Made by a program: the position numbers and the translations under genes
Assembly: GCA_021734945.1 (NCBI GenBank)
Contig: JAIPIA010000002.1
Span: 45,594 to 109,593, forward strand
From: Minisyncoccota bacterium
Lineage (GTDB): Bacteria; Patescibacteriota; Minisyncoccia; Phycocordibacterales; CAIZLB01
DNA length: 64,000 nt
Direction of reading: 5' to 3'
Notes under the pieces: generated by a model
What the model was told of the DNA's origin: nothing
The model's input: only the letters and a program-made list of their open reading frames with translations
Databases searched by the model: none
Part shown: piece by piece, positions 8,961-64,000 of the stretch
Position numbering within the stretch: the stretch's first letter is position 1
Layout: each line of letters begins with the position of its first letter

Positions 8961-10101
8961 AAGGAGTTTTAACCAATCCCTCTTAAAGTTATCCTTTTTA
9001 TATGGAACAATATTAGTAGCCATACTTTTTATTTCTGGCTTAGTAACGTTCGATGAATTTTCGAGTAGAATCGGCAGACGATTTAAAGATGTCCCACCGA
9101 CTATTACTATCCAACTTCCAAACGGTGACCGCATTGTAAATAGACCTACAGGAGTAAGTTCACAACAATTCTCAGTGAGTACAAGTGGCATACAGTTTTT
9201 TGCAACACAGACAAGCGGGCAATTTCCGTTAAGGGCGGTGCCTGAGAGAAACAGAGGTCAATTGCCGACAGCTGAGGATATTCGAAACGACCTTATTGCA
9301 GCTCTTATATTTGTAAATGGAATACTACTTTTAGTTGCAAGTGTTGCAAGTTATTGGCTTGCACGTAGCACTCTCCGTCCAATACGCGACTCGTATGAAA
9401 GACAACGACGCTTTTTAGGAGATGCTTCACACGAACTGCGTACACCACTCAGCATCTTACAAATCGAGCTCGAAAACGAAATGCATAATGCAGATGAAAA
9501 ACAAAAAGAGCAAATCACTAGTAAGCTTGAAGAAGTTAGACGTATGAGTAAACTTGTAGGAGATCTTTTGACGATATCAAGACTCGATGAAGACAAACAG
9601 ACTAGACCGAATCAAAAGAAAAATATTGATACCAAAAAATTTGGAGAACTGGTGGGCAGTATAACTGACCGTCTATCTACGCTAGCAAAGTCACACAATG
9701 TAACTCTGACACTTCACAACAAGATTTCCGAACAAAGTAAGCTACTAATTCCACTTGATGAGGAACTCTTTACTCACGCGATCACAAATTTAATTCAAAA
9801 TGCAATCTTTTACAATAAAAAAGATGGAACAGTTGATGTCACTATAATCGATGAGAGTAAAAAAATTAGTATTGAAATTAAAGATTCAGGTATAGGTATA
9901 AGTAAGGAAGATCTAGAAAAGATATTCGACCGCTTTTATCAAGCAGACAAAAGTCGTACTAGAAAAAATACGCCAAATGAAGGTAGTGGTCTTGGACTAT
10001 CTATCGCAAAATCTGCCTTACTCTATATGGGTGGAAATCTCGAAATCAAAAGTGAGCTCAATATTGGCACGACAGTTCAAGTTAAAATTAAGACCGTCTA
10101 A
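8911..10101 (+). CDS. Sensor histidine kinase (HisKA plus HATPase_c)
   Basis: H-box ASHELRTPLSIL. N/G boxes (NLIQNAIFYN, GSGLGLSIAKS). N-terminal TM segment. Overlaps the response regulator gene by 50 bp, so the true start may be downstream. Confidence 0.85.
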   Translation: MHRESKQFGVKATNSFKRSFNQSLLKLSFLYGTILVAILFISGLVTFDEFSSRIGRRFKDVPPTITIQLPNGDRIVNRPTGVSSQQFSVSTSGIQFFATQTSGQFPLRAVPERNRGQLPTAEDIRNDLIAALIFVNGILLLVASVASYWLARSTLRPIRDSYERQRRFLGDASHELRTPLSILQIELENEMHNADEKQKEQITSKLEEVRRMSKLVGDLLTISRLDEDKQTRPNQKKNIDTKKFGELVGSITDRLSTLAKSHNVTLTLHNKISEQSKLLIPLDEELFTHAITNLIQNAIFYNKKDGTVDVTIIDESKKISIEIKDSGIGISKEDLEKIFDRFYQADKSRTRKNTPNEGSGLGLSIAKSALLYMGGNLEIKSELNIGTTVQVKIKTV

Positions 10102-10306
10102 CTTCATTGCTTGTATTTCAAATTAAGCGCCTCACCTTCACAGTTAATTCATAATCAATTTACTATACTCTACTTACAGTCTACATATGAGATTGTAAAT
10201 TACTCATTAACGTACATATAGAAATTTGTTCAAACCAAACTGTGAAATACGATATTTTAAAATATCTTAAAAATCGCAGTTTAGTTTACGCAGTTTCACA
10301 AATAAA

Positions 10307-10870
10307 ATGAAAATGAATTTATCAAATATGTCTAAGAAATCTAAAACTATTGCAGCTACCGCCTTTATACTCGGTGTAGCAGCTGTTGGCGCCGGCACTG
10401 TTTCAAGTACAGCCTTTGCTGATACAACTACAGAAACAAATCCTCGAGCAACACATATTACCAATCTCGTAACAGCACTCTCTCAAAGATTCAATCTAAA
10501 TTCTGCTGATGTCCAAACTGTAATTAATACGGTCATGGCAACAGAAAAGACTGAAATGGATGCTAATCGATCACAGAACTTAGCTACCCGACTAGCCAAA
10601 GCAGTAACAGATGGAAAAATAACACAAGCACAGTCAAACCTCATAACAGCTAAAGTCCAGGAAAACAAAACTTTTATGGACAGTCTAGCGGGTAAGACTG
10701 CAGCCGAAAAAAAAGCAGCAATGCAAACATATCACGAAGCAATGACGAAGTGGGCGACCGACAATAATATTCCAAAAGGATTTATCCTTGGACCTCAAAT
10801 GGGTATAGGAGGAAAGGGTCACAGCAACTTCAAAGGGATGAATGGTGAAAAAGGTTTAGGAAATAAATAG
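10307..10870 (+). CDS. Secreted hypothetical protein (signal peptide)
   Basis: N-terminal signal peptide MSKKSKTIAATAFILGVAAVGAGTVSSTAFA. Confidence 0.5.
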   Translation: MKMNLSNMSKKSKTIAATAFILGVAAVGAGTVSSTAFADTTTETNPRATHITNLVTALSQRFNLNSADVQTVINTVMATEKTEMDANRSQNLATRLAKAVTDGKITQAQSNLITAKVQENKTFMDSLAGKTAAEKKAAMQTYHEAMTKWATDNNIPKGFILGPQMGIGGKGHSNFKGMNGEKGLGNK

Positions 10871-10929
10871 CATTGGAAATTCCCACAAAGGATATTGTGA
10901 AATGAGCTGTTAATTAAATATGTAATAGT

Positions 10930-10959
10930 AAAAAACCCTGTTGTGAGCAGGGTTTTTTA
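10930..10959. terminator. Bidirectional hairpin terminator (AACCCTG ttgtgag CAGGGTT flanked by A- and T-runs)
   Basis: Perfect 7-bp stem with A6 upstream and T6 downstream. Sits between convergent genes. Confidence 0.7.
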
Positions 10960-10985
10960 CTATCTTAAATTAGAACTTACTTTTA

Positions 10986-11360
10986 TCACTTACTACTATT
11001 AAAGAGTTTCAACTTCTCAAATCTAGAAAGTCTCTTTACTTCCGCTTCCCTCTTCCGTGATTCACTGAGAGTCTTGAATGTCTCGTGATATACCAAACTC
11101 ACTGGTCGTCGAATCTTTGTGTAATGAGCACCTTGCTTAGAAGTATTATGTTGTACAAGACGCTTTTCGAGATTGTTAGTTGCACCAACATACAAAGTTT
11201 CATCAGCGCATTTTAAAATATATGTGAAATAAACCTCAATCAGTAACTTTTTACGTACACCTGCACGCGCCTTTAATCCCTCATATGTTTTCAATCCCGC
11301 ACGTGATTCTAATCTTGCGCGTACCTTTAATTTAGATTTTTCTTTGTCTTTCTTTGGCAT
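10986..11360 (-). CDS. GIY-YIG nuclease superfamily protein (UPF0213-like) with basic N-terminal tail
   Basis: YILKCADETLYVGATNNLEKRLVQHN GIY-YIG core. Confidence 0.65.
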   Translation of the reverse strand: MPKKDKEKSKLKVRARLESRAGLKTYEGLKARAGVRKKLLIEVYFTYILKCADETLYVGATNNLEKRLVQHNTSKQGAHYTKIRRPVSLVYHETFKTLSESRKREAEVKRLSRFEKLKLFNSSK

Positions 11361-49924: not shown

Positions 49925-50015
49925 TGAGATTTTTCCTTTCTCGGTTGTTCAATTGTGTATCTGTCTTATACTATCTTCTGGTAAAATACATCACAATTTG
50001 AGGTTGGTCAATTGG

Positions 50016-50456
50016 TTACTTTGAAGCAAAATACTCCTCTATTCTCCTCACTCCATCTTTATCTTTTTTTCTTGGTGAATATAAAAGAAATGCCAACAAG
50101 TCCTCTAAACGCAAGAATGGAATTCCATCAAAAAATTCAGCTCTCTTTATGAGCTCGGTGGTATCTGGTTGAAACGCACCCCAATGAAGATTTGTAAATG
50201 CCTCATTTGATCCATTTGTAATTGCCTTACAGAAAAAAGTTCTCCAAAAAATCCACTTCCTCTTCCAGCCCTGTTTCTTCAATTCTAAGTACAAATCTGG
50301 CGTAACTAAGACATCGACATCTTTTGCTTTTCGGATGCCGTGAATTTCCAAAACCCCACTACCAAACACACAATATTTTCCTACAGGTAGATTAAGTACT
50401 TTTACTCGAGAAACTATGTCCATGGAGAAAGTATAGCAGTTTTGGAAATGCACCAC
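50016..50456 (-). CDS. Pol-beta-superfamily nucleotidyltransferase (ANT/Lnu-like)
   Basis: FGSGVLEIHGIRKAKDVDVLV = GS ... DxD nucleotidyltransferase motif. 146 aa. Confidence 0.5.
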   Translation of the reverse strand: MVHFQNCYTFSMDIVSRVKVLNLPVGKYCVFGSGVLEIHGIRKAKDVDVLVTPDLYLELKKQGWKRKWIFWRTFFCKAITNGSNEAFTNLHWGAFQPDTTELIKRAEFFDGIPFLRLEDLLAFLLYSPRKKDKDGVRRIEEYFASK

Positions 50457-50500
50457 TAATAATATTAAACATAAGCACAGATGAGATATTTTCCACTAAA

Positions 50501-51226
50501 CTATTCAGCTCTGACGTATACTTCAGCCTCTTTTGAAATGATCGTCTCAAGAATCCTCTTTGCTACAATTTCAGCGGAATCAGTTGGTGGTAATTCTGCA
50601 AAAAATGCTGCCATAACTTTTTTTGTTTCATCATCAGCTATGAGATTAGATCCAAAATTTGTATCTGTAAGATCAGGGTGCACCAAACTTACTAAAATAT
50701 TATCTTTCTTTAATTCTTCTCGCGCAGTTAGCGAAATGCAATTGAGTGCATATTTTGTAGATGCGTAGGCTGACATATATGGAATTATTTCTTTTGAAGC
50801 AACCGAACTAATATTGATAATTTGTCCGCCACCTCGTGATCTCATAACAGGAATTACTTCTTGCATCGCAGCAAGTGTACCTACAACATTAAGGTCAATT
50901 ATCTTTCTAAAATCTGCTATGTCGATAGTCTCAACTGATGCATTAAGACCTTGCGCAGCATTATTTATTAAGATATCAATTCTTCCAAACTTACTGACAA
51001 CTTCTTGAATCATTTTCTTAATTGCAACAATGTCTCTCATGTCTGCAGTTATAGGAAATGAATTAGGTATTTTTGCAGACGCGTCATTTAAGTCTTTTTC
51101 AGTTCGTGCTACCAGAACTACTATTGCACCTTCCTTTGAAAGTAAATGAGAAGTAGCTAAGCCAATACCCTGTGTTGCTCCTGTAACAATTATTACTTTG
51201 TTTTGTAGTGTATTTTGATTATTCAT
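50501..51226 (-). CDS. SDR-family oxidoreductase
   Basis: TGATQGIG, NNAA, S...YxxxK. Confidence 0.85.
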   Translation of the reverse strand: MNNQNTLQNKVIIVTGATQGIGLATSHLLSKEGAIVVLVARTEKDLNDASAKIPNSFPITADMRDIVAIKKMIQEVVSKFGRIDILINNAAQGLNASVETIDIADFRKIIDLNVVGTLAAMQEVIPVMRSRGGGQIINISSVASKEIIPYMSAYASTKYALNCISLTAREELKKDNILVSLVHPDLTDTNFGSNLIADDETKKVMAAFFAELPPTDSAEIVAKRILETIISKEAEVYVRAE

Positions 51227-51369
51227 GAGTATTTAAAAGTTTAGAAATTGTTACTAATATGACTATTAGATTACATATTAGCTTAACAGAAATCGTCTTC
51301 ATAAATGCAGTATGTCTGTGGATAGTCTTAGGACTTGCCCAACATATAAGCATATGCTAATATGTAAGC

Positions 51370-51624
51370 ATGGCACGCAATATTATATATAAAGCATTCG
51401 CGAATGAGCAGCGACTCAAACTACTCAAATGTCTGTCTGAGTCTCAAAACGTTACTGAACTTCAAAAGCACTGCCCTTTTAGCCAGTCTGCTCTATCCCA
51501 ACATTTAAAAGTATTAAGAGACTCAGGCTTGGTACAAACAAATAAACAAGGTAAACAGATTGTATATAGTGTCACGAACAAAGAAGTTATAAAGATTGCT
51601 ACCCTATTACTCAATTTTAAATAG
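51370..51624 (+). CDS. ArsR/SmtB-family transcriptional regulator
   Basis: 84-aa winged HTH (ANEQRLKLLKCLSESQNVTELQKHCPFSQSALSQHLKVLRDSGLV). Confidence 0.75.
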   Translation: MARNIIYKAFANEQRLKLLKCLSESQNVTELQKHCPFSQSALSQHLKVLRDSGLVQTNKQGKQIVYSVTNKEVIKIATLLLNFK

Positions 51625-51666
51625 CCTCAGCGTAAATAATATTAAACATAAATAAAATTTAAATAT

Positions 51667-51924
51667 ATGACTACAAATAAACTTACAGATAAAAAAGTAA
51701 TTATTTATTCAACTCCAACATGTCCCTACTGTGTATATGCCAAAGATTTTTTCAAGGATAAAGGTGTGGCATTTGAAGATGTAGATGTATCTGCCAACTA
51801 TGCTCGAGCTACAGAAATGGTACAAAAAAGTGGGCAGATGGGAGTTCCTGTAATAGACATAGAAGGGCAAATAATTGTTGGTTTCCAACCTGAATTATTT
51901 GAAAAACTCATTTCACAAAAATAA
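51667..51924 (+). CDS. Glutaredoxin/NrdH-like thioredoxin-fold protein
   Basis: CPYC active site and GVPVIDIEGQIIVGF cis-Pro region. Confidence 0.75.
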   Translation: MTTNKLTDKKVIIYSTPTCPYCVYAKDFFKDKGVAFEDVDVSANYARATEMVQKSGQMGVPVIDIEGQIIVGFQPELFEKLISQK

Positions 51925-51927
51925 TCT

Positions 51928-52641
51928 ATGAAATATACAAATACAAGTGCAAAGATAATTATACTAAGTCTTCTTGGAGTTATTGCGGTATCAGCTCTTG
52001 TGGTCTTGTTGCAGAAAAACCTCGCACCTATTGCGCCCACAGATGCATTCTCAAATGCGACTCCGAACATATCCAAGAATACTGAAAGTGGACAGCCCTC
52101 TAACTCAACAACACTTACCGAGCAAGAAAAGGCTGGTATTATCCAAATGCGTGAAGAGGAAAAACTTGCTCGAGATGTATATACAACCCTTGGTAATATT
52201 TGGGGTACTCCAATATTTCAAAACATAGCATCATCTGAACAGACACATACAGATGCTGTAAAAACTCTACTCACACAATACAACATTGAGGATCCTGTAC
52301 GTAATAACACAATAGGTGTGTTTACTTCCCCTATTATCCAAGACTTATACGACAAACTCACTACTCGTGGAAAAACATCTCTAAGAGAAGCACTTGTTGT
52401 AGGTGCATTGATTGAAGATCTCGATATACGAGACTTGGACACACTTATAGATCAGACCAATAAATCAGATATTTTGACTGTATATAGCAATCTCCAAAAA
52501 GGATCACGAAACCACATGCGATCTTTCGTGAGAAACATAGAAGCAAATGGAGGTACATATACACCGAGTTATATCAGTCAATCTGAATACGACTCAATAT
52601 TAAACAGTTCTCAGGAGCGAGGTGGACAGTTTGGTAGATAG
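51928..52641 (+). CDS. DUF2202 (ferritin-like superfamily) protein with N-terminal TM/signal
   Basis: MREEEKLARDVY, SSEQTHTDA, ALVVGALIEDLDIRDL, GSRNHMRSF blocks of DUF2202. Confidence 0.6.
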   Translation: MKYTNTSAKIIILSLLGVIAVSALVVLLQKNLAPIAPTDAFSNATPNISKNTESGQPSNSTTLTEQEKAGIIQMREEEKLARDVYTTLGNIWGTPIFQNIASSEQTHTDAVKTLLTQYNIEDPVRNNTIGVFTSPIIQDLYDKLTTRGKTSLREALVVGALIEDLDIRDLDTLIDQTNKSDILTVYSNLQKGSRNHMRSFVRNIEANGGTYTPSYISQSEYDSILNSSQERGGQFGR

Positions 52642-52651
52642 GCTTGATTTA

Positions 52652-53092
52652 TTATTTTCTATATTCTTCCCTAATCTCCATCCACATTCGCCCCATATGG
52701 TTCAAACCTTCCCCATGTTCCCCGTCATCCCAAAAGCCATCACCAGGTGGACCAGATACTATATGTTTTACTATCTTCAAATCACCCGAGTCTAGCAATG
52801 CTTTACGAACGTCTTCGTGCTGAGCGACTTTCATCTCCATTAATTCTTTCATTATCTTCAACTTATATTCCTCACTTTTGAACTCAGGAATTTGCAGATG
52901 CTTATATTTAGTAGATATTTCCCATGCTTTAACAGCACTAGTAGCACCCCGTATTTCTTCGATGATATTTATGTCTGTATATCTTTTGCACTGATAAGCA
53001 TGTTCGAGTGTTGGAAATATAACACCATCTATCTCAAGTGCGTGTCCCGTGTATGGAGAAAAGTATGTGTAAAAAATTTCTAGTGGGAGCAT
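52652..53092 (-). CDS. NADAR-domain protein (YbiA-like)
   Basis: FYTYFSPYTGHALEIDGVIFPTLEHAYQCKRY ... GDGFWDDGEHGEGLNHMGRMWMEIR matches the NADAR consensus. Confidence 0.7.
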   Translation of the reverse strand: MLPLEIFYTYFSPYTGHALEIDGVIFPTLEHAYQCKRYTDINIIEEIRGATSAVKAWEISTKYKHLQIPEFKSEEYKLKIMKELMEMKVAQHEDVRKALLDSGDLKIVKHIVSGPPGDGFWDDGEHGEGLNHMGRMWMEIREEYRK

Positions 53093-53126
53093 ATTTGAAG
53101 TATAGCAAAATTAGATCACTTAAAAA

Positions 53127-53585
53127 TCATGTAAGACTCAGACTTTTAAATACCTCACTTGGTACTATATATTTATCAAGCTCATTTACATTATCTTCTA
53201 AAACCAAAACCTCCTCTCCAAAATCGAAATTGTGATGTGCCCTAGTCATTACATCCTTAACATGAGGACCACATTCCTCACGAACTTGAACAGTTACAGG
53301 AATCATCTTTATTCCATGTTTATGAAACAGTTGTATTCTATGATTACCTGATTCAAGACGAAATTTTCTGTTCTTTATTCCTATTCTCATAATAAAGGGT
53401 TCGTGTAACCCTTCGTCACAAATATTTTTCCAGAGAGTATCTAGATCGACAACTTCACCATTCATTAGATCAGTAACAGGCAGCACATCAGCACCACGAT
53501 ATTTCCAAACCCATTCAGTTGGTATCAACTCAATTTTACCATGCATGTATAGTTCAGTATTTTTCCAAAGTTCTTTTATGTACAT
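53127..53585 (-). CDS. Hypothetical protein, weak ParB/Srx-like nuclease-domain resemblance
   Basis: ESGNHRIQLF block only. Low confidence. Confidence 0.3.
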   Translation of the reverse strand: MYIKELWKNTELYMHGKIELIPTEWVWKYRGADVLPVTDLMNGEVVDLDTLWKNICDEGLHEPFIMRIGIKNRKFRLESGNHRIQLFHKHGIKMIPVTVQVREECGPHVKDVMTRAHHNFDFGEEVLVLEDNVNELDKYIVPSEVFKSLSLT

Positions 53586-53603
53586 ATATTATATAAAATT
53601 TAT

Positions 53604-54248
53604 TTAAACTAGAAAGTCATTAAAGCTCTTGATTATATTTTTATACCCCTCCCTCTCCACAATATTCCAAGCTTCTTTGTATGCAAGTTTAACCTCACAC
53701 TTTTCTATGTCCGCCGCAAGACGATCGGGTCTACCCAATACATCTAGATAAATTTCTTTATGAATAGCATGCACGAGAATATGATTTGAAACAGCAGGAT
53801 CTTCAATTTCTGGATAATTCTTTTTGCACCAGATACCACCATTTTTATCCTGTTTATTATCAGTTAATAATCGATGAATTAACTCGTGGGTCAGCACATC
53901 CACAAAAGCTTCTCCTTCAATTTTAATACTAATTACAACAGGATCACTAAAAGCACGATGCCAACCACCTACGAGATACACATCGATTGAATTTTGAAAA
54001 AAAGTGAGTCCTGTTATTTGTTGTAATGCATTAAGTATTTGTGTCTCTTCCTTTTGCCAAGATTCCTTTCTTGCACGCATTGCATCAAGCATTTCTATTC
54101 TACTTGGTGCTTTTGAATCTTTATACTCTTCGATTCTATTTATGTATGAGTAAAGAACATTGTCGATAAATCTACCACTCAAAATTCGTATTTCAGGCAT
54201 CGATATTTTAGGTGTTGATATTTTAGGTTTTTTATTAAAATTGAACAT
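53604..54248 (-). CDS. Hypothetical protein with HExxH motif (putative metallopeptidase-like)
   Basis: THELIHRL. No other family signature recognised. Confidence 0.35.
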   Translation of the reverse strand: MFNFNKKPKISTPKISMPEIRILSGRFIDNVLYSYINRIEEYKDSKAPSRIEMLDAMRARKESWQKEETQILNALQQITGLTFFQNSIDVYLVGGWHRAFSDPVVISIKIEGEAFVDVLTHELIHRLLTDNKQDKNGGIWCKKNYPEIEDPAVSNHILVHAIHKEIYLDVLGRPDRLAADIEKCEVKLAYKEAWNIVEREGYKNIIKSFNDFLV

Positions 54249-54275
54249 GAATTTAATATTAGATACAAAGAAGAA

Positions 54276-54755
54276 TTAAAATGTAAGTCCCGACACCACA
54301 ACCTCAGGATAGGCTTCAGTGTATTTTTCACCATGTGCACCATAGTACGCAACAGTACGTTCTAAAAAATTAACTTCATATCCAACAACACCCGCTTTCC
54401 ATGTGGCATTTAGAAATTCGGGAAATGTACTCTGCCCCGCCTGATCAGTACGAAGTGCCTTTATGAGCGCTTCTTCATTAAAATTAGGGACCTCGGCCAT
54501 TCCTGACACAAGTGGTGTACCTTGATGTACAAGCTCAGCGTTTTTAAAGACATACATACTTTGAGCACTTGGAAGTGTCCATATATTTTTCTCTACACCT
54601 GCCTGACGTAAGCACTCTGCGAGAAATGGAAAACCACCGACTTGAGGTCGATGTGCCATGGCGAATTGCATTGCAGTTTGTAGTTTCTCTTGTGCGTTAT
54701 TATTTTCCTGTGTCCCATTACTATTACTTCCCTGCGTATTATTCATACTGCGCAT
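54276..54755 (-). CDS. DUF1398-family protein
   Basis: GGFPFLAECLRQAGV ... ALRTDQAGQSTFPEFL ... YYGAHGEKYTE pattern of DUF1398. Confidence 0.6.
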   Translation of the reverse strand: MRSMNNTQGSNSNGTQENNNAQEKLQTAMQFAMAHRPQVGGFPFLAECLRQAGVEKNIWTLPSAQSMYVFKNAELVHQGTPLVSGMAEVPNFNEEALIKALRTDQAGQSTFPEFLNATWKAGVVGYEVNFLERTVAYYGAHGEKYTEAYPEVVVSGLTF

Positions 54756-54766
54756 TTTAGCATATT

Positions 54767-54964
54767 TTACTGACTCATTCTATTGATTCGATGATATAAC
54801 CAATATGTAAATAAAAACACGGCAAATATGATTGCAGCGAGCACAACGACTATCAAAAGATTTGGACCTTCTGGATCATTAACAAAGAAGAATACCGTCC
54901 GAGAACACACGAGAGATATTGCACCTAAAATTAGAAGTGTTTTATTTTTTGGTTTCTGATTCAT
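54767..54964 (-). CDS. Small membrane protein
   Basis: 65 aa with two hydrophobic helices. Confidence 0.3.
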   Translation of the reverse strand: MNQKPKNKTLLILGAISLVCSRTVFFFVNDPEGPNLLIVVVLAAIIFAVFLFTYWLYHRINRMSQ

Positions 54965-54972
54965 GTGTGTTT

Positions 54973-55083
54973 TTAAATTAGACTTTGAATTAATTTCATC
55001 TTCTCGACACTTTCTATAACTTTATTCAAAAGTGTCGATTTACCACTCTTAGGCACGCCTGTTATAAGGATATTCTTTTTCAT
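54973..55083 (-). pseudogene. N-terminal fragment (36 aa) of a P-loop kinase
   Basis: MKKNILITGVPKSGKSTLLNKV then stop. Paralogous to the N-terminus of the adjacent disrupted kinase gene. Confidence 0.35.
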
Positions 55084-55095
55084 AACTTAAGTATA

Positions 55096-55636
55096 TCAAA
55101 CCAACGCACCCAAATCTCTTAAAATAATATCTGCATTTTTCCTAATGTCTACCTTACCCAAATCAAGAACTCGAGTTGATGGATAATCATTCTCTTTAAA
55201 AATTTTTGCTTTTTTATCCAAATCTTCCTGAGAAATTGCAGGCTTATTAAGTTTTAAAGTACGTTCTTGTACTCGCGCTGCGAGAGTCTCTTCATCGGCT
55301 TCCAATCGATATACAAAGAAACTAGCTTTATGAGCAGAAGCAATTTTCTCAAGTACTCCTATATCTTTTCTACTCATTCCTTGAGCGACTATTACAATGA
55401 TGCCGTTTTTCAAATATTCATCTGTCATCGAGTTAATTACTCTCTCGCTTACAAGCTGGTGGGAAGAGATATCTCTAAATTCAGAAATAAAGCGCTTAAT
55501 ACGATCAATCCCTATGTAAGCAGTATTTGCAAGCAGTATTTGATATCTCACTACCAAGTAGATCACCAAGAGTACTTTTTCCAACCCCTTGTCTTCCGTA
55601 AAGAACGATGAGAGAAATATTCTTTAGTTTATGCAT
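55096..55636 (-). pseudogene. P-loop kinase (AAA_33-like) gene disrupted by a 13-bp tandem duplication
   Basis: N-terminal frame gives MHKLKNISLIVLYGRQGVGKSTLGDLLGSEISNTAC then a stop. The rest continues in another frame (YIGIDRIKRF...). The tandem copies TAAGCAGTATTTG / CAAGCAGTATTTG lie at about 55520-55545. Removing one copy restores a single ORF of about 177 aa. Confidence 0.6.
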
Positions 55637-55677
55637 GACTTAAGTATATCAAATTGACACGTCTCGGTACTGTTCTT

Positions 55678-56853
55678 TTATATACTAGTCGCACCCATTA
55701 AAAAGCCCCTCGTGATAGGGCCAAAATATCCCCGTGCTGGCGCAAGGCCGTTTACAGCTTGATATTTAGCAAGTGCATTTTTTGTTTTTTGTCCAAAGTA
55801 TGTGGTTTCTTTACCTAGTGATCCAGCTCCTATCACTGATATCGGAAAGTGTGCAATATTTAAATACTTTTGTAATTCCTTGACGTCATTGTTGTCGTCG
55901 CCAACTCTAAGATCTTTTGTAAAAAAGTAAATGGAAGTAGATCCTGTGGTGGTTGAAAATATATCTGTAATCGGCGTGATGGAAGTCAAACCGATAGAAG
56001 AATAGGTTGTTGTACTTGCCGTAGTGTTTGTCGTTGTGTTTATTTGCGTACTGGTTGTTGTACTTACTTCTGTGCTAACTACCAGACTCACAGGAGTGCC
56101 TGATTCTGTGTTAGTAGTAAGAGTCGAAGTCGCTATCGTTGGCCCTGTGTAATACGAAGTAATTACTCCACATTTGTTTATTTCGACATAATATCCAACT
56201 ATATTCGTAATCGTACTGCACCCACCTAGAGACACCTCTTCTCTTCCGATTGTGAGCGATGCGTCATCTATCGAAGCTCCAAAGTGTCCAGACCAAAACA
56301 AAGTATCCATTCCTTTAATCTCAAAATATACATATCGAATTCCAGCACCATATTCAGTAAATGTATGTGAAATTTTCTGCCATTCACCTGTTGTGTTTTG
56401 TTGTCCAGAATCATATGTAGCCACATCATTGTGATTTTCATCTCGAAGTATTACTTTAAAGTCATATATACCGCTACCGCTTATTACCCAGACACTTGCA
56501 GTTATATCTGGCTCAGCGTCTAACGTAGTAGTTGAAAAGTCATTATCAAGAAGGTCGATTTCTTGACTGAGAGTACCCCAATCGTATGAAGTGGTTACAT
56601 GGTATTCCCCCGAGTGCCCTCCTCCATTTATTCTTACACAGCTATTGTAATCATCATTTCCATATATGACAGCGTTTGCTGGACAGTTACCTGTAACAGT
56701 CCAACTAGTTGTGTCACCTGTTTCAAATCCAGGATTGGAGATCAAGTTTGTCAGAGCGTCTGCACGCTGTGCAAACATTGCCATACACATACTTGCTGTA
56801 ATAATACTTATTTTGATTACAGATACACTGGAGTAATATTTAGATATATTCAT
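55678..56853 (-). CDS. Secreted CBM-like domain protein with C-terminal PG_binding_1 domain
   Basis: Signal peptide. LISNPGFETGDTTSW carbohydrate-binding-module-like start. C-terminal VKELQKYLN ... GYFGPITRGF peptidoglycan-binding repeat. Confidence 0.6.
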   Translation of the reverse strand: MNISKYYSSVSVIKISIITASMCMAMFAQRADALTNLISNPGFETGDTTSWTVTGNCPANAVIYGNDDYNSCVRINGGGHSGEYHVTTSYDWGTLSQEIDLLDNDFSTTTLDAEPDITASVWVISGSGIYDFKVILRDENHNDVATYDSGQQNTTGEWQKISHTFTEYGAGIRYVYFEIKGMDTLFWSGHFGASIDDASLTIGREEVSLGGCSTITNIVGYYVEINKCGVITSYYTGPTIATSTLTTNTESGTPVSLVVSTEVSTTTSTQINTTTNTTASTTTYSSIGLTSITPITDIFSTTTGSTSIYFFTKDLRVGDDNNDVKELQKYLNIAHFPISVIGAGSLGKETTYFGQKTKNALAKYQAVNGLAPARGYFGPITRGFLMGATSI

Positions 56854-56910
56854 TGTTACTAGAATTATATCTGATAAATTGAAAAAAATATTTTGTGTGT
56901 GTATATATAA

Positions 56911-58209
56911 CTAGTGAGGATATCGATTCAGAATCATGGAGAATTTTTGTATCAATATCCTCTTTATACTACGCAGTTGGGGATACGTATCACCTACTCT
57001 ACGCATACCCAATCTACACAGATACATACACACCGCACAAAAGAGTTTTCTATCGTATATGGGTATATAGTGCCATCTCCCCTTACTGTTCATAACCCAA
57101 GGTAACATTCCGAGGAATATATCTTTTATAGTCCCATTCATAAGAAGATTACTTATAGTACGGTGAAAATGCCAAACAGGTACTCCTTGTCCACTCGCAC
57201 GAAGTACTGAAGTTGGCAACAGGGATGAGCATTCAGATGAATTTCCATGAGTATTAGAATCTATATATGTTTTAATTGCTTCCGAAAAATCAATGCCTGC
57301 ATGTCTTGTCAAAGAGAACCAAATATTTGGTCGCATATCTGCTTCAATAAAGTACAACTCCTTAGATGAAGTATCTTGTATAAAAGTTATATTATAGAAT
57401 CCATCAAAATTAAAAGTGTGGCCAATAGTGTGTAATATATCCTCTACATCTGGGTCGTGTTTATATATACGTCCAGCAGAGACATTAAACTCCCCTCCAG
57501 TGGTAGAAGTAATGCGAGAACAAGCACAGGCAAGGAGAGTTCCTTTTTGAAAGAGAGCTTCGCATGATACATTGTCACCCTTGATATATGCTTGCAAAAC
57601 TATGTTCTGCTCTGAGTTTATATTCTTCTCTATTTTTTTTCTCTGTATATCGCAAAGTACACGAAACACATCCTCATGAGAATGACAAAGAAAAACACCT
57701 TCGCCTCCACTACTTCGATCAACCTTTACAACAATAGGAAGTTTAATTTCTTCCATACCTTTTCCTATAATTTTTTCTATACTTTTATCTTTATCCTGTT
57801 TTATGTATTCATCTACCGATACAATCGTATAGGATGGTGTCAATATTCCATGGGCAAAACATATCTTTGAGAATTCAGCTTTAGATGTTGCAAGCAATCG
57901 AGCTTCATCGCTTGTACATTGAACCTTATTCCAAACAGCATCATTTACTAATCTAACTGCTTCATCCTCGGTTAACACAATCCAATCGTAAGTCTGTTTC
58001 TCTGCACAAGCAATAAGTCCGCTCACATATGCATTTTGATCACCAACAGGCGCTTCGTACCAGGTATGGTGATATACGTTTTTGCGTAGCCAAGAATTTT
58101 TGGCGCAATAGACGTCTACTATACAACCAGCGCGATGAAATAAAAAAGGGATTTCGGCTGAAATATCAGGCTGACGATAATCTGATAATAGGACGCGAGG
58201 TTTATACAT
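56911..58209 (-). CDS. ATP-grasp domain protein
   Basis: PIVVKVDRSSGGEGVFLCHSHEDV and LQAYIKGDNVSCEALF blocks typical of ATP-grasp ligases. Confidence 0.6.
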   Translation of the reverse strand: MYKPRVLLSDYRQPDISAEIPFLFHRAGCIVDVYCAKNSWLRKNVYHHTWYEAPVGDQNAYVSGLIACAEKQTYDWIVLTEDEAVRLVNDAVWNKVQCTSDEARLLATSKAEFSKICFAHGILTPSYTIVSVDEYIKQDKDKSIEKIIGKGMEEIKLPIVVKVDRSSGGEGVFLCHSHEDVFRVLCDIQRKKIEKNINSEQNIVLQAYIKGDNVSCEALFQKGTLLACACSRITSTTGGEFNVSAGRIYKHDPDVEDILHTIGHTFNFDGFYNITFIQDTSSKELYFIEADMRPNIWFSLTRHAGIDFSEAIKTYIDSNTHGNSSECSSLLPTSVLRASGQGVPVWHFHRTISNLLMNGTIKDIFLGMLPWVMNSKGRWHYIPIYDRKLFCAVCMYLCRLGMRRVGDTYPQLRSIKRILIQKFSMILNRYPH

Positions 58210-59395
58210 TGAAATAAGCTTTGTATTTTAAATATATAAAACGCGGTAAAGCACCAACATGTGGTAATCTCCAAGCTGAACTTAAAAATACGGGAAACTT
58301 TTTTATCTTTTCAAACCATGTTCCAACGGCTTCAAACTTCCAATACCTATACCAGAGTGCTGGAAAATTTCCCAAAAGCAAAAGCTGATTTGCAACACGG
58401 CTTTTGTGCTCTCGTCGAGAAGCACGAGAAACAGGTGTTGCATATAATTGATCAAGGAAAGTCTGAGGGAAAAATATACTGAACCGTGCTGAGAGGTACA
58501 TACATGCTTGCTGGACATCTACGACTCTATTCATGCGTACAGCAGATTCGAGCACTGCACTCCAATCCATATTCCCCATTCTCATTATCCAAATAGCATC
58601 AATAACCCACCGAAATGGACGCCATGAATTATTACCCGCGCCATGAGATATGACATGTACAAACATAGATTCAAAAGACATGCGTTTTATCTCAGCTAGT
58701 GGCTTCTGCAACACAGTTTCAAGCGGGCAAGTTTTTTCCCAAGTATATATATCAGCTTCGTGAAGTGCTGGAATATTTTTTAGAAAAAATAGATCAAAAG
58801 TTGAAACAGTATTAGCGGTATGAAATATATGCCAATGCAATTCGATTGTTACATCAGGTTCTTTTTTGAAACCAAATGAATGAACAACAGCACCAAAACT
58901 CATAGTGTCGACACCTGATACAAGTATAGTATCAATCGGTTTCCATCCGAGCTCTTTCAGTATTGATATCGTTTTTTGCACATCGTCAGGATGAACCAGT
59001 ACATCTCCATCTGCCAAAAAGCGAGCTCCTGCATCTTTGTATATAGATTCAAGTAAAGCCAGCCCTTTGAGTAGCACGATCGGTATATGCACTTCTGCAC
59101 AACGTGTACTCAATATATGAACCTCATTGAGCAAGATCTGATTTTTGACCCACGCTATCTTATACACACCTGAGACACGATTTGATAGCGGATCTACTAT
59201 CTGCAGTTGTGAAAGTCTCTTATGCAAAAGTGGGAGTAGACCCAAAGTAGCGTGATCAATATCATCAAAAATTGTTTCGTTTTTCCATTTCTCAAATCTA
59301 TTTGCAAAAACATCGTCAGGACAAATAAGGACATCAATAAATTTTTCTTCTATTGGATTCGGGAAACTCTTTGGATATGTTATATGTCGTGTCAT
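58202..59395 (-). CDS. Nucleotidyltransferase-family protein (NTP_transf_5-like)
   Basis: HIPIVLLKGLALLESIYKDAGARFLADGDVLVHPDDVQKTISILKELGW matches the family consensus. Overlaps the upstream gene by 8 bp. Confidence 0.6.
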   Translation of the reverse strand: MTRHITYPKSFPNPIEEKFIDVLICPDDVFANRFEKWKNETIFDDIDHATLGLLPLLHKRLSQLQIVDPLSNRVSGVYKIAWVKNQILLNEVHILSTRCAEVHIPIVLLKGLALLESIYKDAGARFLADGDVLVHPDDVQKTISILKELGWKPIDTILVSGVDTMSFGAVVHSFGFKKEPDVTIELHWHIFHTANTVSTFDLFFLKNIPALHEADIYTWEKTCPLETVLQKPLAEIKRMSFESMFVHVISHGAGNNSWRPFRWVIDAIWIMRMGNMDWSAVLESAVRMNRVVDVQQACMYLSARFSIFFPQTFLDQLYATPVSRASRREHKSRVANQLLLLGNFPALWYRYWKFEAVGTWFEKIKKFPVFLSSAWRLPHVGALPRFIYLKYKAYFNV

Positions 59396-59420
59396 ATGTG
59401 CGGTGTGTTATGTAATGCGT

Positions 59421-60125
59421 TTATATATCAAGTTTTTTTCTCTTTCGATCAAGCGCTTCCTTTACAATTCTCACATAATCAATACGTGACATTCTGTCTC
59501 GAACTCCTGTATTCGTATCATGAATGCGTCGATCTAAATATACATCACTCAGCATATCAAATGAGAGACCCAAAGATTCAGCGCGCGCGAGCCAGTCGAC
59601 AAATTCACCAACACGCCATCGTGAATCAAATAACCCAACACGATCAAAAGAATTTCTTTTCATCAATACTGTAGGTGGTATCTGTCCCGGAAGAGGGTCT
59701 GCTGGGCAAAGACGCTGAGATTTTACATCATCAGAAAGCTCTGGACTGAGAAAGCATTGGACATATGTAAAAGATACGTCGATATGTGGATATTCAGTCA
59801 ATTGTTTAATTTGCCGACTGAGTTTGTGTTTACGCCACATATCATCAGCATCCATAAAAGCGATATATTCCCCTCGTGCAACCTGTATACCAGCATTACG
59901 TGCTCCAGCTATTCCTAGATTGACAGGGCTATCTATAACAGTAACCTTGTCACCAAAAGACTGTACTATTTTCAGAGTACCATCTGTTGATCCATCATTA
60001 ATACAAATAAGCTCAAGAGATACATCATCTTGAGACAGAACACTTCCTATTGCCTCAGCAATATATTTTTCTGCATTATATGCAGGCATAATGACACTGA
60101 CGAGTGATGGTATTAAGTTACTCAT
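59421..60125 (-). CDS. Family 2 glycosyltransferase
   Basis: VSVIMPAYNAEKYI ... NDGSTDGT ... FMDADD (DxD). Confidence 0.8.
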   Translation of the reverse strand: MSNLIPSLVSVIMPAYNAEKYIAEAIGSVLSQDDVSLELICINDGSTDGTLKIVQSFGDKVTVIDSPVNLGIAGARNAGIQVARGEYIAFMDADDMWRKHKLSRQIKQLTEYPHIDVSFTYVQCFLSPELSDDVKSQRLCPADPLPGQIPPTVLMKRNSFDRVGLFDSRWRVGEFVDWLARAESLGLSFDMLSDVYLDRRIHDTNTGVRDRMSRIDYVRIVKEALDRKRKKLDI

Positions 60126-61825
60126 ACTATTTTACGTATAGTTATTTGTTTTTCTGAATTATGGAAAGGTATACATTCATATACATAGTCAAGGCACGGT
60201 ATGAGTCTTTTATCATGAGTAACCACAACAATTGTTAAACCTCGTACATGAACATTTTTGAGTATCCTCTCAGTTGTCTCCAAACTTAAGTGATTATTTG
60301 GTTCGTCAAGCACCACTATCTTTGGTCGACAAAGTAGTGTGCGCGCCAGTGCAATACGCTGTCTTTGTCCTCCAGACAATTTTACACCTCTCTCTCCAAT
60401 CTGTGTATCATATCCATGGCTCAAACTGGTAATAAATGTATGCGCTTCACACAGTATACACGCATCTACAATATCCTCTTCAGATATGTTATCAAGACCA
60501 TAGAGTAAATTTTCCCGAATAGTACCATGGAACATAGTCGGATCTTGAAGTAGTACACCAATATGTTTCCTGTATGTATGCATATCGATCTCTCGAAGAT
60601 CTATACCATCGGCTTGTATTTCTCCTTGCATTGGTTCATAGAGACCCATCATCAAATGTATCAGCGTAGATTTGCCGGAACCTGACCCACCGTAGATTCC
60701 TATTGATTTCCCTCGCTGTATCTCTAGATTGATATCTTTGAGCATAAAAGTATCACCGTACCCAAAACATACCTGTTTAAATATGATAGATGTTGAAATA
60801 TCGACTATCTTATTTCCCTTCTTATCAAATTCAACGGATTTCATAAGTGGATACAATGTGTACAAAGATTCGTACCCCTCTATGAGTACAGGTAGTGATC
60901 CAAGTGCATTTCTCGCATTATTACTAAGCAGCATCAACGCTGCATAGAATGCTAATAACTCTCCAAGCGTTCCAGAGCCATGTATAACTTGAATACCTCC
61001 CACAAGTAAACTAACAATACCAGTCAACATAAGAAGGTTTTGGTTCAATAGATTTTGAACTGTATTAATCCATGACATTGCATGACTCGAGTGACGGAGT
61101 TGTTCTATGAGTTGTTCTTGTTTTGTTAATTCATAAGTTGTTGCACCTGAGACGTGTATATGATCATTTAATTTTAGAAATTTTGATATGCCTCTACTGA
61201 ACGCTACAAAATCATCGTGAAATATTCTTGTACGTTTCTGTGAAATAGCACCGATATAGTGCCCAATCGGAAACATAAGCGGAAGGAATACCATGGCGAC
61301 TAAAAATAAAAGTGGATTCAAAAATATGAGAAAACAAAACATACCAAATACAATCAAGCTACCTGGAATAAACTGCGTGAGTAATGAATTGGTCATAAAA
61401 TCAATCCTCTCTGAATCCTGTACTAGACGTGAGTGTAATTCGTCAATATCTGCTTCAGTATAAAAACTACGATGTTGATGTATCACTTTGGTAATGAGTG
61501 TTAATCGAATCTTTTTGGTTGTTGTCTTAACAATACTGAGCACGAGATATCGATTCCACGCGAGAGCTATAGCATTCAGAGTAAATAAAACCAAAATCCC
61601 CCCAAGTGATGTAATGAGTCCACGCACGTCTTTACTAGGCAAGATAACATCAAAAACATATTTAAATATTGCCGCGATAGGAATAAGTGAAAATGTCTGC
61701 AATAAAATCAGACCAATACTCAAAGACAATTTACCCAGCATGTCTTTAAAATACTTCATATACCACGCCCACCGAAGACGAACATCTGTTTTTTTGAAAA
61801 ATAATTTTGATAGTAAGAAGTTCAT
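60122..61825 (-). CDS. ABC exporter, fused permease/ATP-binding protein (no peptidase domain)
   Basis: 6-TM N-terminal domain. Walker A GGSGSGKST, signature LSGGQRQRIALAR, Walker B VVLDEPNN. 567 aa. Confidence 0.9.
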   Translation of the reverse strand: MNFLLSKLFFKKTDVRLRWAWYMKYFKDMLGKLSLSIGLILLQTFSLIPIAAIFKYVFDVILPSKDVRGLITSLGGILVLFTLNAIALAWNRYLVLSIVKTTTKKIRLTLITKVIHQHRSFYTEADIDELHSRLVQDSERIDFMTNSLLTQFIPGSLIVFGMFCFLIFLNPLLFLVAMVFLPLMFPIGHYIGAISQKRTRIFHDDFVAFSRGISKFLKLNDHIHVSGATTYELTKQEQLIEQLRHSSHAMSWINTVQNLLNQNLLMLTGIVSLLVGGIQVIHGSGTLGELLAFYAALMLLSNNARNALGSLPVLIEGYESLYTLYPLMKSVEFDKKGNKIVDISTSIIFKQVCFGYGDTFMLKDINLEIQRGKSIGIYGGSGSGKSTLIHLMMGLYEPMQGEIQADGIDLREIDMHTYRKHIGVLLQDPTMFHGTIRENLLYGLDNISEEDIVDACILCEAHTFITSLSHGYDTQIGERGVKLSGGQRQRIALARTLLCRPKIVVLDEPNNHLSLETTERILKNVHVRGLTIVVVTHDKRLIPCLDYVYECIPFHNSEKQITIRKIV

Positions 61826-61843
61826 ATATGTACGTGCTTGTAA

Positions 61844-63010
61844 TTATATAGAGGAAAAGACACTGCTTCGAATAACTTCCGGCACTCTCGAAACGGAACT
61901 CCCTAGCACCAACCGCTTCATCGGTAGACGTTCAATCAGTAATCGAAAGGTACGCAATGTTGCACTCGATGCTAATGGTAACTGAAACAGTGTTGTTGGA
62001 GCAAGCGCAAGAAATGCTTGGACTTTGTGTATTGGTTCAACGTGTGTCATTTCACCAGTCCCAAAAGTGGGCACAAGCACAGCTACCAATTCGGCTGAGA
62101 GCTGTATTTGTTGAGGAAAGAGCGTATTTAGATTCAGGACCATTTTTTGTTCAACACCATCAATCTTAGTTAATAGGCCATTGGAACCATCCTGCACTTC
62201 TAATTCTGGAAAATATTTTAATGCATTAAGTTTTAATTTTGCAGAAGAATATAAACTATACGCACGCGCACCCGTATCATGTACTTCAATGGCAACATAG
62301 TCATCACCAAGATACGTCATTCCCTGCCGAATGCATTCCATGGATGTAGTTGATTTTCCAGAACCTCCTCTCGCAGTTAATAACGCTGCTTTTTCTCCTA
62401 TGCCGACAACCGCTCCGTGTAGTAGATATATATTATTCTCAGCCAAAAACCAATGGAATATAGTTCGAAGCGGTGCAGCGTCGACCCATGTTGGTAACAC
62501 TTGTACATCTTGGATAAAAAAGTATGCAGTCTTAGTTGAAATATCATAGAGAGAAATACTTTCCTCACCATTTAGATAGACACCGAGAAAATCGTTTCCT
62601 CTGTTCCTCTCAGTATCAACTTCTTGCTGATTGACGTATTCTTCTGAAGACCATGGTGGAGCAACTACCACTCCAGTTCCGGACATGTCCCACACATGAA
62701 CCGTTAGGTCGCAGGCTTGACTACAGACCTGTGTCGCATCCTTGCTATTCGGTATATTCATATGAGAAATATCCAAGTGAGAAATTGCTGGGTGAAGACG
62801 TTCATATAATACCTGTGAATAAAAAAATAATTCGACATTCTTTCCAGCAATACAATACTGTTTTCTTATTTGCTCAGTCTTTTTTTGTAATACAGTTACC
62901 ACCGGCAAAACCACATCTGTTAGATATGTTTTTTTTAGACTGAGAATATTACGCGTCAGTATGTGGTTATGTGGTATAGACATGTTTGTCAGTATCCGAA
63001 CTAGATACAC
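61844..63010 (-). CDS. HPr kinase/phosphorylase C-terminal-domain-like kinase (HprK-like)
   Basis: LHGAVVGIGEKAALLTARGGSGKSTTSMECIRQGMTYLGDD closely parallels the HprK P-loop region. No HprK N-terminal domain. Confidence 0.6.
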   Translation of the reverse strand: MYLVRILTNMSIPHNHILTRNILSLKKTYLTDVVLPVVTVLQKKTEQIRKQYCIAGKNVELFFYSQVLYERLHPAISHLDISHMNIPNSKDATQVCSQACDLTVHVWDMSGTGVVVAPPWSSEEYVNQQEVDTERNRGNDFLGVYLNGEESISLYDISTKTAYFFIQDVQVLPTWVDAAPLRTIFHWFLAENNIYLLHGAVVGIGEKAALLTARGGSGKSTTSMECIRQGMTYLGDDYVAIEVHDTGARAYSLYSSAKLKLNALKYFPELEVQDGSNGLLTKIDGVEQKMVLNLNTLFPQQIQLSAELVAVLVPTFGTGEMTHVEPIHKVQAFLALAPTTLFQLPLASSATLRTFRLLIERLPMKRLVLGSSVSRVPEVIRSSVFSSI

Positions 63011-63719
63011 TAGATACTCGAGACCGTGCGCGCTCTAGTTTTCGACGAAAGGCTCCAAATTGCCCTCCCGCCATACATTCTTTCGAATTTGTCATATTAT
63101 TCTCATGACGACGATATGACAACACTATATCTTTGATAATAGTCTGAGGTAATCCACTTTCTGAAAATCTAATATTCCAATCAAAATCTTCTCCCGATCG
63201 CATAGTCTCATCAAAAAGTCCCACTACTTTGAACGTATCTGCCCGATACAAGCACGCTCCGACTAATGCCTCCATAAACAAACCTTCCGTTCGTTCTACA
63301 ATTTCCTTACTCTGATTATCTCGGAAACGTACGAACTCAACATACCCTCGGGCAAGCATACACGCAGGATCGTTTTGTAAAAGCGGCAGTAATACCTCAA
63401 GATGATTGGATGTCCACATATCATCTGAATCAACAAAACCAATAATTTCACCTTTAGCTCTTTTAATACCAGCATTACGTGCTGATGATGGGCCCTTATT
63501 TTCCTGCTCTATAATTACTATTTGATCTCCATATTCTTTCAAGACTTTCAAGGTACCGTCAGTCGATCCATCATCCACTACAAGTATCTCAAGTTGCGAA
63601 TACTGTTGCCTCAACACTGAATCTATTGCTTCTTTTATATATGATGCACAATTGTATACAGGGATGATTACTGAGATATATGGAATTGAGTCATTATCAC
63701 ATGGAGTTGTATCATTCAT
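62967..63719 (-). CDS. Family 2 glycosyltransferase
   Basis: ISVIIPVYNCASYI ... DDGSTDGT ... FVDSDD. Overlaps the kinase gene start by 44 bp. Confidence 0.8.
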   Translation of the reverse strand: MNDTTPCDNDSIPYISVIIPVYNCASYIKEAIDSVLRQQYSQLEILVVDDGSTDGTLKVLKEYGDQIVIIEQENKGPSSARNAGIKRAKGEIIGFVDSDDMWTSNHLEVLLPLLQNDPACMLARGYVEFVRFRDNQSKEIVERTEGLFMEALVGACLYRADTFKVVGLFDETMRSGEDFDWNIRFSESGLPQTIIKDIVLSYRRHENNMTNSKECMAGGQFGAFRRKLERARSRVSSVSSSDTDKHVYTT

Positions 63720-63737
63720 AACCTTTCGTGTATAGCT

Positions 63738-64000
63738 TTATTTTAATTTTGGCCAGCCAGTTTCATCCACATCATGAATAGGGTCTGCTAATAACATTTC
63801 TTGCATATCTCTGTATATTTCTATCGTAGGTGGAGTAAATATTGGATGATTCTGTGATACCTGTGTGACCTCAACATCTTGAGTACTAGGTTTTGTATCC
63901 AACGGTGCGACTATTTCTGCATCTACTGGCACAATCAATTTTTCAGCGAGGAGGTTATCTATAAATGACCGTACGGCCATCTCTATCTCTTTTTCAGAAA
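63738..64000 (-). CDS. Hypothetical protein. Reading frame stays open to the window edge, so the 5' end may lie outside.
   Basis: No in-frame stop between 63980 and 64000 on the minus strand. Met at 63980 is a possible start. Confidence 0.3.
   Translation of the reverse strand, partial: SEKEIEMAVRSFIDNLLAEKLIVPVDAEIVAPLDTKPSTQDVEVTQVSQNHPIFTPPTIEIYRDMQEMLLADPIHDVDETGWPKLK

Follow-up and report, generated by a model that had tools for sequence, protein, structure and literature searches.

A lasso-B1-like PqqD domain fused to a conserved tail heads a kinase, glycosyltransferase and nucleotidyltransferase cassette found in more than 10 bacterial phyla

Pathways that make ribosomally synthesized peptides with post-translational modifications (RiPPs) have as their defining feature a recognition element to which a separate precursor peptide binds. 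The C-terminal Ser of pseudomycoidin is phosphorylated by an HprK-like kinase, and PsmN, an 'uncharacterised NTP transferase', is needed to put one or two hexoses on the phosphate (PMC6993621). The linear polyphosphorylated peptides (LPPs; Popov et al., Nat Commun 2026, PMC13381572) derive from a separate precursor of 35-200 aa with a YxxPxVLxHQxIxFETxxS leader and are polyphosphorylated on Ser3 by LppK, which acts on the linear peptide bound to the RiPP recognition element (RRE), accepts Ser and rejects Thr and Tyr. LPP clusters encode a discrete RRE and a SipW-like signal peptidase, LppS, and have been reported to be restricted to Bacillota; both they and the paeninodin clusters sit in capsule loci (PMC13381572). 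An HprK-like kinase, an NTP_transf_5 protein and an MsbA-like exporter are the documented gene set of pseudomycoidin and LPP clusters (PMC6993621, PMC13381572). Here, we analyse a stretch of 64,000 nucleotides (the window) from contig JAIPIA010000002.1 of a Minisyncoccota bacterium (Patescibacteria, assembly GCA_021734945.1). Its end carries a minus-strand operon with this gene set, which a preliminary description of the same DNA had likened to the tailoring genes of phosphorylated lasso peptides.

The window holds a seven-gene, possibly eight-gene, operon that lacks its 5' end. In the first protein a lasso-B1-type PqqD/RRE domain is joined through a variable linker to a C-terminal tail that is strongly conserved, and we call the gene of this protein the PqqD-tail gene. 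Together with a P-loop kinase, glycosyltransferases of family 2 (GT2) and an NTP_transf_5 protein, it forms a so far uncharacterised cassette that recurs well beyond the Patescibacteria. In the literature searched we found no earlier description of an RRE fused to such a tail. We favour, with a probability of roughly 55%, the reading that the cassette is a widespread RiPP-like system in which the RRE forms one protein with its own leader and with a core that bears phospho- or glycosyl decoration.

By itself, the 86-aa fragment encoded at the window edge has no Pfam or NCBIfam match; it comprises the end of the RRE domain, the linker and the tail. Full-length homologues have 120-160 aa (160 aa in P0171, a near-identical relative of the window protein), and over the N-terminal ~90 residues they match Pfam PqqD, with E-values from 1e-8 to 4e-17. 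Their best NCBIfam match is lasso_PqqD_Bac, at 56 bits (cut-off 80). Against solved structures the family profile finds the lasso B1 protein TbiB1 (8e-13) and the lasso PqqD chaperone 9x90 (1e-12), then 9x8z ('PqqD family protein', 1e-6) and TfuB1 (5e-6). An AlphaFold2 model of the homologue P0121 (pLDDT 88.7) has as its best Foldseek matches in the PDB TbiB1 and another B1 protein, each with a leader peptide bound, TbiB1 at a TM score of 0.90 normalised to the target. The PqqD-like RRE that the preliminary description had suggested looking for beyond 64000 does exist, at the window edge, and is nearest to lasso B1 by both sequence and predicted fold.

The window frame terminates at 63738 in ...IFTPPTIEIYRDMQEMLLADPIHDVDETGWPKLK. 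This tail opens with a leader-like [FY]xxPx[LIV] motif, which is followed by YxDMQEMLLADPIHDVDxxGWPKLK; the acidic and hydrophobic DMQEMLLADPIHDVDxxGWP(K/R) is the putative core. In 191 members, numbered relative to the Asp-Pro, position -18 is F (69%) or Y (17%), -15 is P (98%), -13 is L (52%), I (32%) or V (8%) and -10 is Y (85%) or F (13%). Positions -8, -7 and -6 are D (98%), M (91%) and Q (84%), and -3 and -2 are both L (93% and 94%). From position 0 the tail reads DP[IV]H[DE], four residues and GWP, with K or R following within four residues in 88%. In composition and spacing [FY]xxPx[LIV] matches [Y/W]xxPx[L/V/I/F/A], the motif that lasso and LPP recognition elements bind (PMC13381572). 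A search with the tail alone (37 residues) returned 1,188 proteins at E <= 0.001 among 1.84 billion cluster representatives, nearly all of them proteins of 120-160 aa that carry the match at their very C-terminus.

Between the window and a close relative, L053, the 34 tail codons differ by 0 non-synonymous and 7 synonymous changes, which marks the tail as strongly constrained at the protein level; the 52 codons preceding it carry 13 non-synonymous and 3 synonymous changes. In the AlphaFold2 model of P0121 the residues 101-120, which include the leader-like motif, are placed with confidence (pLDDT 94 and 86) and form a beta strand at 110-113; over the last 17 residues confidence is low (pLDDT 58 and 50). 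This suggests that the motif would dock on its own RRE domain and leave the end of the tail free.

The cassette was traced with a kinase profile built from 21 homologues, which recovered at least 48 loci from contigs representing one genome per species. Gene content was scored by tblastn with the window proteins and by clustering of all open reading frames (ORFs), and both agree. The PqqD-tail gene, the kinase gene, one to six GT2 genes of ~230 aa and the NTP_transf_5 gene are co-located on one strand in more than 10 phyla, including Patescibacteria, Alpha-, Beta-, Gamma- and Deltaproteobacteria, Bacteroidota, Chloroflexota, Actinomycetota, Acidobacteriota, Cyanobacteria, Planctomycetota, Gemmatimonadota and others. 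Since order and strand are kept in dozens of unrelated genomes, the arrangement is not due to chance. Among the hosts are apparent isolates (Aporhodopirellula rubra CECT 8075, Novosphingobium sediminis NBRC 106119, Anabaena sp. UHCC 0187 and Yoonia rosea).

Three minimal cassettes (L049, L050 and L051) consist of five genes in the window order PqqD-tail, GT2, kinase, GT2 and NTP_transf_5, and their upstream neighbours are unrelated or lie on the opposite strand. At least 33 related loci have kept NTP_transf_5. The GT2 position between the PqqD-tail and kinase genes is kept in L001, L002, L005, L049 and L051, and the other GT2 of the window has a 55% identical orthologue at the equivalent position in L001. 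The ABC exporter gene occurs in about 13 of 48 related cassettes. The motif DP[IV]H..GWP is found once per locus in 38 of 51 loci, always within the cassette PqqD ORF; in several of the loci without it the kinase lies no more than about 300 nt from the contig start, and the upstream gene is thus off the contig. One candidate for a cassette without a PqqD-tail gene, L055 from a related Patescibacteria metagenome-assembled genome (MAG), was rejected because a truncated GT2 remnant stands at its 5' end. At 1508-1876 this remnant and an AbrB-like 59-aa ORF replace the PqqD-tail gene and the first GT2, and the locus has either decayed or is a chimera of the assembly.

Some of the cassette genes are fused in other genomes. 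Five proteins of ~600 aa (P0021, P0082, P0083, P0089 and P0106) join an N-terminal GT2 to the kinase, mirroring the order and overlap of these genes in the window. In L030, a Pirellulales MAG, the PqqD-tail frame reads into the kinase at about 9460-11000 (700 aa from stop to stop), which is either a natural RRE-tail-kinase fusion or a sequencing frameshift. The natural fusions suggest that the PqqD-tail protein, GT2 and kinase may work as a physical complex.

A Pfam census of the 112 same-strand flanking ORFs at 45 loci covered the 25 most frequent families, each present in at least 2 ORFs. These include families that tailor with sugar or sulfate, with counts of 7 each for GT1/GT4 and Sulfotransfer_3, 6 for SDR, 5 for Sulfotransfer_1, 4 for further GT2 and 3 each for SMP-30 and GFO/IDH/MocA. 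The sulfotransferase genes recur within larger cassettes (L006, L008, L011, L017, L021 and L030), and in these lineages the products may be sulfated. A sulfotransferase Pfam family also accompanies some lasso clusters.

The cassette shares with LPP clusters a [Y/W]xxPx[aliphatic] leader motif, the lack of a macrolactam cyclase and many glycosyltransferase genes, and by family description the HprK-like kinase, NTP transferase and MsbA-like exporter of the window match LppK, LppN and LppD. It differs in that the RRE is fused to the tail, whereas the LPP RRE is discrete and the precursor separate. Beyond its PxL element the tail consensus departs from the LPP leader, and it lacks a conserved Ser, the acceptor in LPPs. 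Where LPP clusters have LppS, no peptidase was found in the window genes or census families. Furthermore, GT2 genes are obligatory here, the cassette spans many phyla instead of one, and the RRE profile favours lasso B1 proteins over 9x8z, presumably LppB, by the E-values given above. For paeninodin and pseudomycoidin (PadeK/PsmK and PsmN), the PsmN-dependent transfer of hexose to a phosphate is the best functional precedent (PMC6993621). The NTP_transf_5 protein of the window carries the same 'uncharacterised nucleotidyltransferase' label as PsmN and LppN, and the likeness is one of label.

Other described systems agree in fewer respects. SynChlorMet (Scm) and HPr-rel-A systems (TIGR04248/04249 and TIGR04352/04353) likewise contain both a protein of the PqqD family and an HprK-related P-loop protein, and homologues of the window kinase are labelled PF27840 'ScmC'. 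However, scores against the ScmC, ScmD and HprK_rel_A models are 14-36 bits at cut-offs of 125-200, and the radical-SAM enzymes contained in Scm cassettes are absent from the cassette. Glycocin clusters (SunS/GccA) offer the parallel of a GT2-fold enzyme proposed to glycosylate a ribosomal peptide, but the two window GT2s reach 31.6 and 32.6 bits against the SunS model TIGR04195 (cut-off 350). The separate precursor, thioredoxin-like protein and C39-peptidase ABC exporter of glycocin clusters were not seen in the cassette. An anti-phage defence system was considered and rejected, as generic ABC ATPase matches were the only hits of the cassette proteins to PADLOC models.

Table 1 Coordinates of the operon features in the window
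Feature	Position	Strand	Description
Conserved tail IFTPPTIEIYRDMQEMLLADPIHDVDETGWPKLK, 34 aa	63741..63842	-	Leader-like motif and putative core
PqqD-tail gene, 3' part (C-terminal 86 aa of ~160-aa protein)	63738..64000	-	Frame runs past window edge
GT2 'b', 250 aa	62967..63719	-	Pfam Glycos_transf_2 1.5e-38; between PqqD-tail and kinase genes
HprK/PEPCK-fold P-loop kinase-like protein, 379 aa	61844..62983	-	Pfam label ScmC (PF27840) on homologues
ABC exporter half-transporter, 567 aa	60122..61825	-	Pfam ABC_membrane and ABC_tran; transmembrane plus nucleotide-binding domain, no peptidase domain
GT2 'a', 234 aa	59421..60125	-	Pfam Glycos_transf_2 2e-36
NTP_transf_5 nucleotidyltransferase-fold protein, 397 aa	58202..59395	-	Pfam PF14907 1.3e-31
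ATP-grasp ligase-like protein, 432 aa	56911..58209	-	Weak Pfam/NCBIfam matches
FBA/CBM-like and PG_binding_1 protein, 391 aa	55678..56853	-	Pfam FBA 6e-22, PG_binding_1 6e-9, CBM_4_9 8e-5

The coordinates and domain assignments that the preliminary description had given to six of these genes (ATP-grasp to GT2 'b') hold, as do the open frame at the window edge and, according to Pfam, the exporter without a peptidase domain. Its 8-bp (58202-58209) and 4-bp (60122-60125) overlaps are exact. The 44-bp overlap of the kinase and GT2 genes stands for the longest kinase ORF, which starts at a GTG (61844-63010, 388 aa), but shrinks to 17 bp with the ATG at 62983, where the database protein P0001, 100% identical to the kinase, begins. 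The remaining junctions among the six genes are gaps of 18-25 bp. Promoter and terminator scans gave counts near those of shuffled sequence.

Invariant GGSGKSTT and DDY motifs, plus conserved Arg, His and Lys residues, run through the kinase family, and only about 50 residues around the P-loop align with HprK structures (PDB HprK 3e-6). Pfam Hpr_kinase_C matches at 5e-5 (23 bits versus a gathering score of 33.3) and HprK_rel_A at 5e-7 (29.1 bits, 31-36 bits in homologues, at a cut-off of 200), scores that leave it outside HPr-rel-A. The full Hpr_kinase_C plus Hpr_kinase_N of an HPr kinase/phosphorylase is not found in the window kinase. The preliminary description was right that the HprK N-terminal domain is missing, but the protein has an N-terminal domain of its own of ~170 aa, PEPCK-like in the model. 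The AlphaFold2 model (pLDDT 86.6) matches best a two-domain ATP-dependent phosphoenolpyruvate carboxykinase (PEPCK; E 7e-11, TM about 0.55), with HprK lower. Of the other enzymes, the NTP_transf_5 protein has a GDxD stretch (ADGDVLV), and the exporter matches generic type-1 exporter models of NCBIfam, all below cut-off.

In the mechanism that we propose, the first protein would be precursor and recognition element in one. Its RRE domain would bind the [FY]xxPx[LIV] of the tail, either in cis or from one molecule to another, and the flexible, conserved end of the tail would be offered to the HprK/PEPCK-fold kinase in complex with the adjacent GT2. Kinase, NTP_transf_5 and GT2s would then install a phosphate-linked and/or glycosidic sugar decoration on the tail, which sulfotransferases, GT4s and sugar oxidoreductases would diversify in other genomes. 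Where the MsbA/McjD-like exporter is present, as in this genome, it would export the product, and the ATP-grasp ligase would add a lineage-specific step here. Gene content, domain identities, the conservation of the cassette, the purifying selection on the tail and the confident placement of the leader-like motif are observed; that the tail is the substrate, and what chemistry decorates it, we infer. The fuller picture, a phylum-spanning class of self-recognising precursors whose near-invariant tail carries a phosphate/sugar decoration, sulfated in some lineages, is plausible, though we put it a little short of even odds.

Several observations weigh against the cassette being such a RiPP-like system. 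There is no conserved Ser or Thr anywhere in the tail of the 191 members; given that known HprK-like RiPP kinases act on Ser, the acceptor of this kinase may be a sugar or something else. Tyr -10 was considered as the acceptor and rejected, since with F in 13% it is not obligatory. The kinase model is nearer to PEPCK, a small-molecule kinase, than to HprK, a shape that would also fit a small-molecule or sugar acceptor. The docking of the tail in the leader groove is read from AlphaFold2 confidence and secondary structure, and the LppB aspartate that forms a hydrogen bond with the leader Tyr is apparently unconserved here, judging from the profile alignment. An exporter is missing from the minimal cassettes. 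The tail-search matches did not establish a stand-alone version of the tail: the 40-90-aa matches first taken as evidence of a split precursor were dropped, as one, P0268, begins 38 nt from a contig end and most of the others are apparent truncated PqqD proteins. Finally, the cassettes have no conserved protease, which leaves peptide release unexplained. Asp-Pro bonds self-cleave in GDPH-type and FrpC-type modules, and the invariant Asp-Pro of the tail, followed by [IV]-His, could, speculatively, be a site of self-cleavage, of protease-free release or of cross-linking.

The strongest competing explanation takes the PqqD-tail protein as an adaptor, a chaperone or scaffold whose tail, as a docking or an auto-inhibitory element, would recruit the complex of kinase and GT2, with the substrate encoded elsewhere or not a peptide at all. 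The missing Ser or Thr acceptor and the missing protease or release step suit this explanation, as do the fusions of GT2 to kinase and of PqqD-tail to kinase (L030), which fit a structural role, and a tail conservation too high for a typical, variable RiPP core. However, highly conserved cores do exist in cofactor-like RiPPs such as PqqA and MftA, and the 51 loci show neither a further conserved small ORF nor another gene that might encode the substrate. Moreover, the AlphaFold2 model suggests that the RRE groove is filled by the protein's own tail, with which a leader supplied in trans would have to compete. We regard the adaptor role as unlikely.

Slightly less probable still is an envelope-glycopolymer locus, an alternative that the preliminary description had offered and that we do not favour. 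Here GT2s, kinase, NTP_transf_5 and exporter would make and export a surface oligo- or polysaccharide or a phosphoglycan, with the PqqD protein as a regulatory accessory. This would account for up to six tandem GT2s and for the GT4, sulfotransferase, SDR, GFO/IDH/MocA and SMP-30 accessory genes. TuaG/EpsE-type models give the GT2s their best scores, each far below cut-off. Such a locus would also fit the lectin-like, peptidoglycan-binding protein that adjoins the cassette and the location of the kindred LPP and paeninodin clusters in capsule loci (PMC13381572). On the other hand, neither the window genes nor the census families include a polyprenyl-phosphate priming transferase, Wzx/Wzy or Wzm/Wzt, the exporter of the window being a fused type-1 half-transporter, and the minimal cassettes do without any transporter. 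Also against such a locus, the ever-present and most constrained first gene encodes a peptide-recognition domain with a leader motif.

A true lasso cluster, with cyclase, B2 peptidase and short precursor hidden beyond 64000 and the window holding its tailoring and export genes, is very improbable, even with an RRE that resembles lasso B1 and with the kinase, NTP_transf_5 and exporter that paeninodin-type clusters typically have. The operons of the 51 related loci begin at the PqqD-tail gene. In L053, a 3.1-kb contig, nothing but a membrane ORF of 85 aa and a phosphatase-like fragment of 58 aa lies in the 935 bp upstream of the PqqD-tail gene, and the genes upstream of L001, L049 and L051 are unrelated or on the opposite strand; given L053 and the minimal cassettes, lasso core genes are unlikely to be hidden upstream in this genome. 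A cyclase, a B2 peptidase and a separate precursor are indispensable to lasso clusters; the related cassettes yielded none of the three, and canonical GT2 enzymes are always present in the cassette. In particular, no cyclase (PF00733) occurs at 50000-64000 of the window, in the census families or in the called genes of L049-L051, L053 and L055, and no transglutaminase-like B2 peptidase (PF13471) in the window genes, minimal cassettes or census families; a signal peptidase is likewise missing from the window genes and census families. The preliminary description had suggested that the core enzymes and a short precursor could lie just upstream. No separate conserved small ORF turned up in the related loci, nor a lasso-type precursor with YxxPxL leader, Thr -2 and an acidic core residue at 7-9, and the leader-like motif already sits inside the RRE protein. 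Its nearest kin is the kinase/nucleotidyltransferase tailoring module of paeninodin-type lasso peptides: the cassette is related to lasso-peptide tailoring genes and is not itself a lasso-peptide cluster.

The downstream end of the operon is less conserved. The ATP-grasp protein has several weak Pfam matches (best GARS_A, 3.5e-5), all below the gathering score. Homologues stand directly after NTP_transf_5 in L054 (91% identity) and in L055 and L056 (48%), those at 36-41% identity stand alone, and L001-L051 have none. Sequence comparison thus marks it as an accessory of the window's sub-clade and not a core member. The preliminary description had cited graspetide-type ligases as RiPP modifiers; a core role of this kind was rejected for lack of conservation beyond the sub-clade. 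On another contig of the candidate phyla radiation (CPR), L057, a 36% identical ATP-grasp gene lies head-to-head with a Mur-ligase/DUF218 gene (8018-11149), and the window protein weakly matches an archaeal pseudomurein ATP-grasp model. The ancestral role of the family may lie in cell-wall peptide synthesis.

The gene for the 391-aa sugar-binding protein starts 57 bp downstream of the ATP-grasp gene and is possibly the last member of the operon. Its counterpart in L054 (2737-5139) encodes an 800-aa protein with Lectin_C, Big_5, fn3 and PG_binding_1 domains. This positionally conserved, swapped and probably secreted sugar-binding wall protein might recognise the cassette product. Beyond the unit, 50016-54964 holds unrelated small genes, including DUF1398, NADAR, an SDR (50501-51226), several ORFs without a family and a plus-strand trio of ArsR, glutaredoxin and DUF2202.

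If the PqqD-tail protein is a self-recognising precursor, the strict conservation of its core across phyla would point to a cofactor-like or signal-like product and not to a variable antibiotic. More than 1000 sequence clusters in which a recognition element is fused to a leader- and core-like tail would alter how RiPP clusters are searched for, given that precursor-centred genome mining seeks separate short ORFs and would, we expect, probably miss the cassette. The five-gene minimal cassette is a tractable route to the chemistry of NTP_transf_5. The kinase/nucleotidyltransferase module, known only from paeninodin-type lasso peptides and LPPs, would extend far beyond Bacillota and would reach into the reduced genomes of Patescibacteria.

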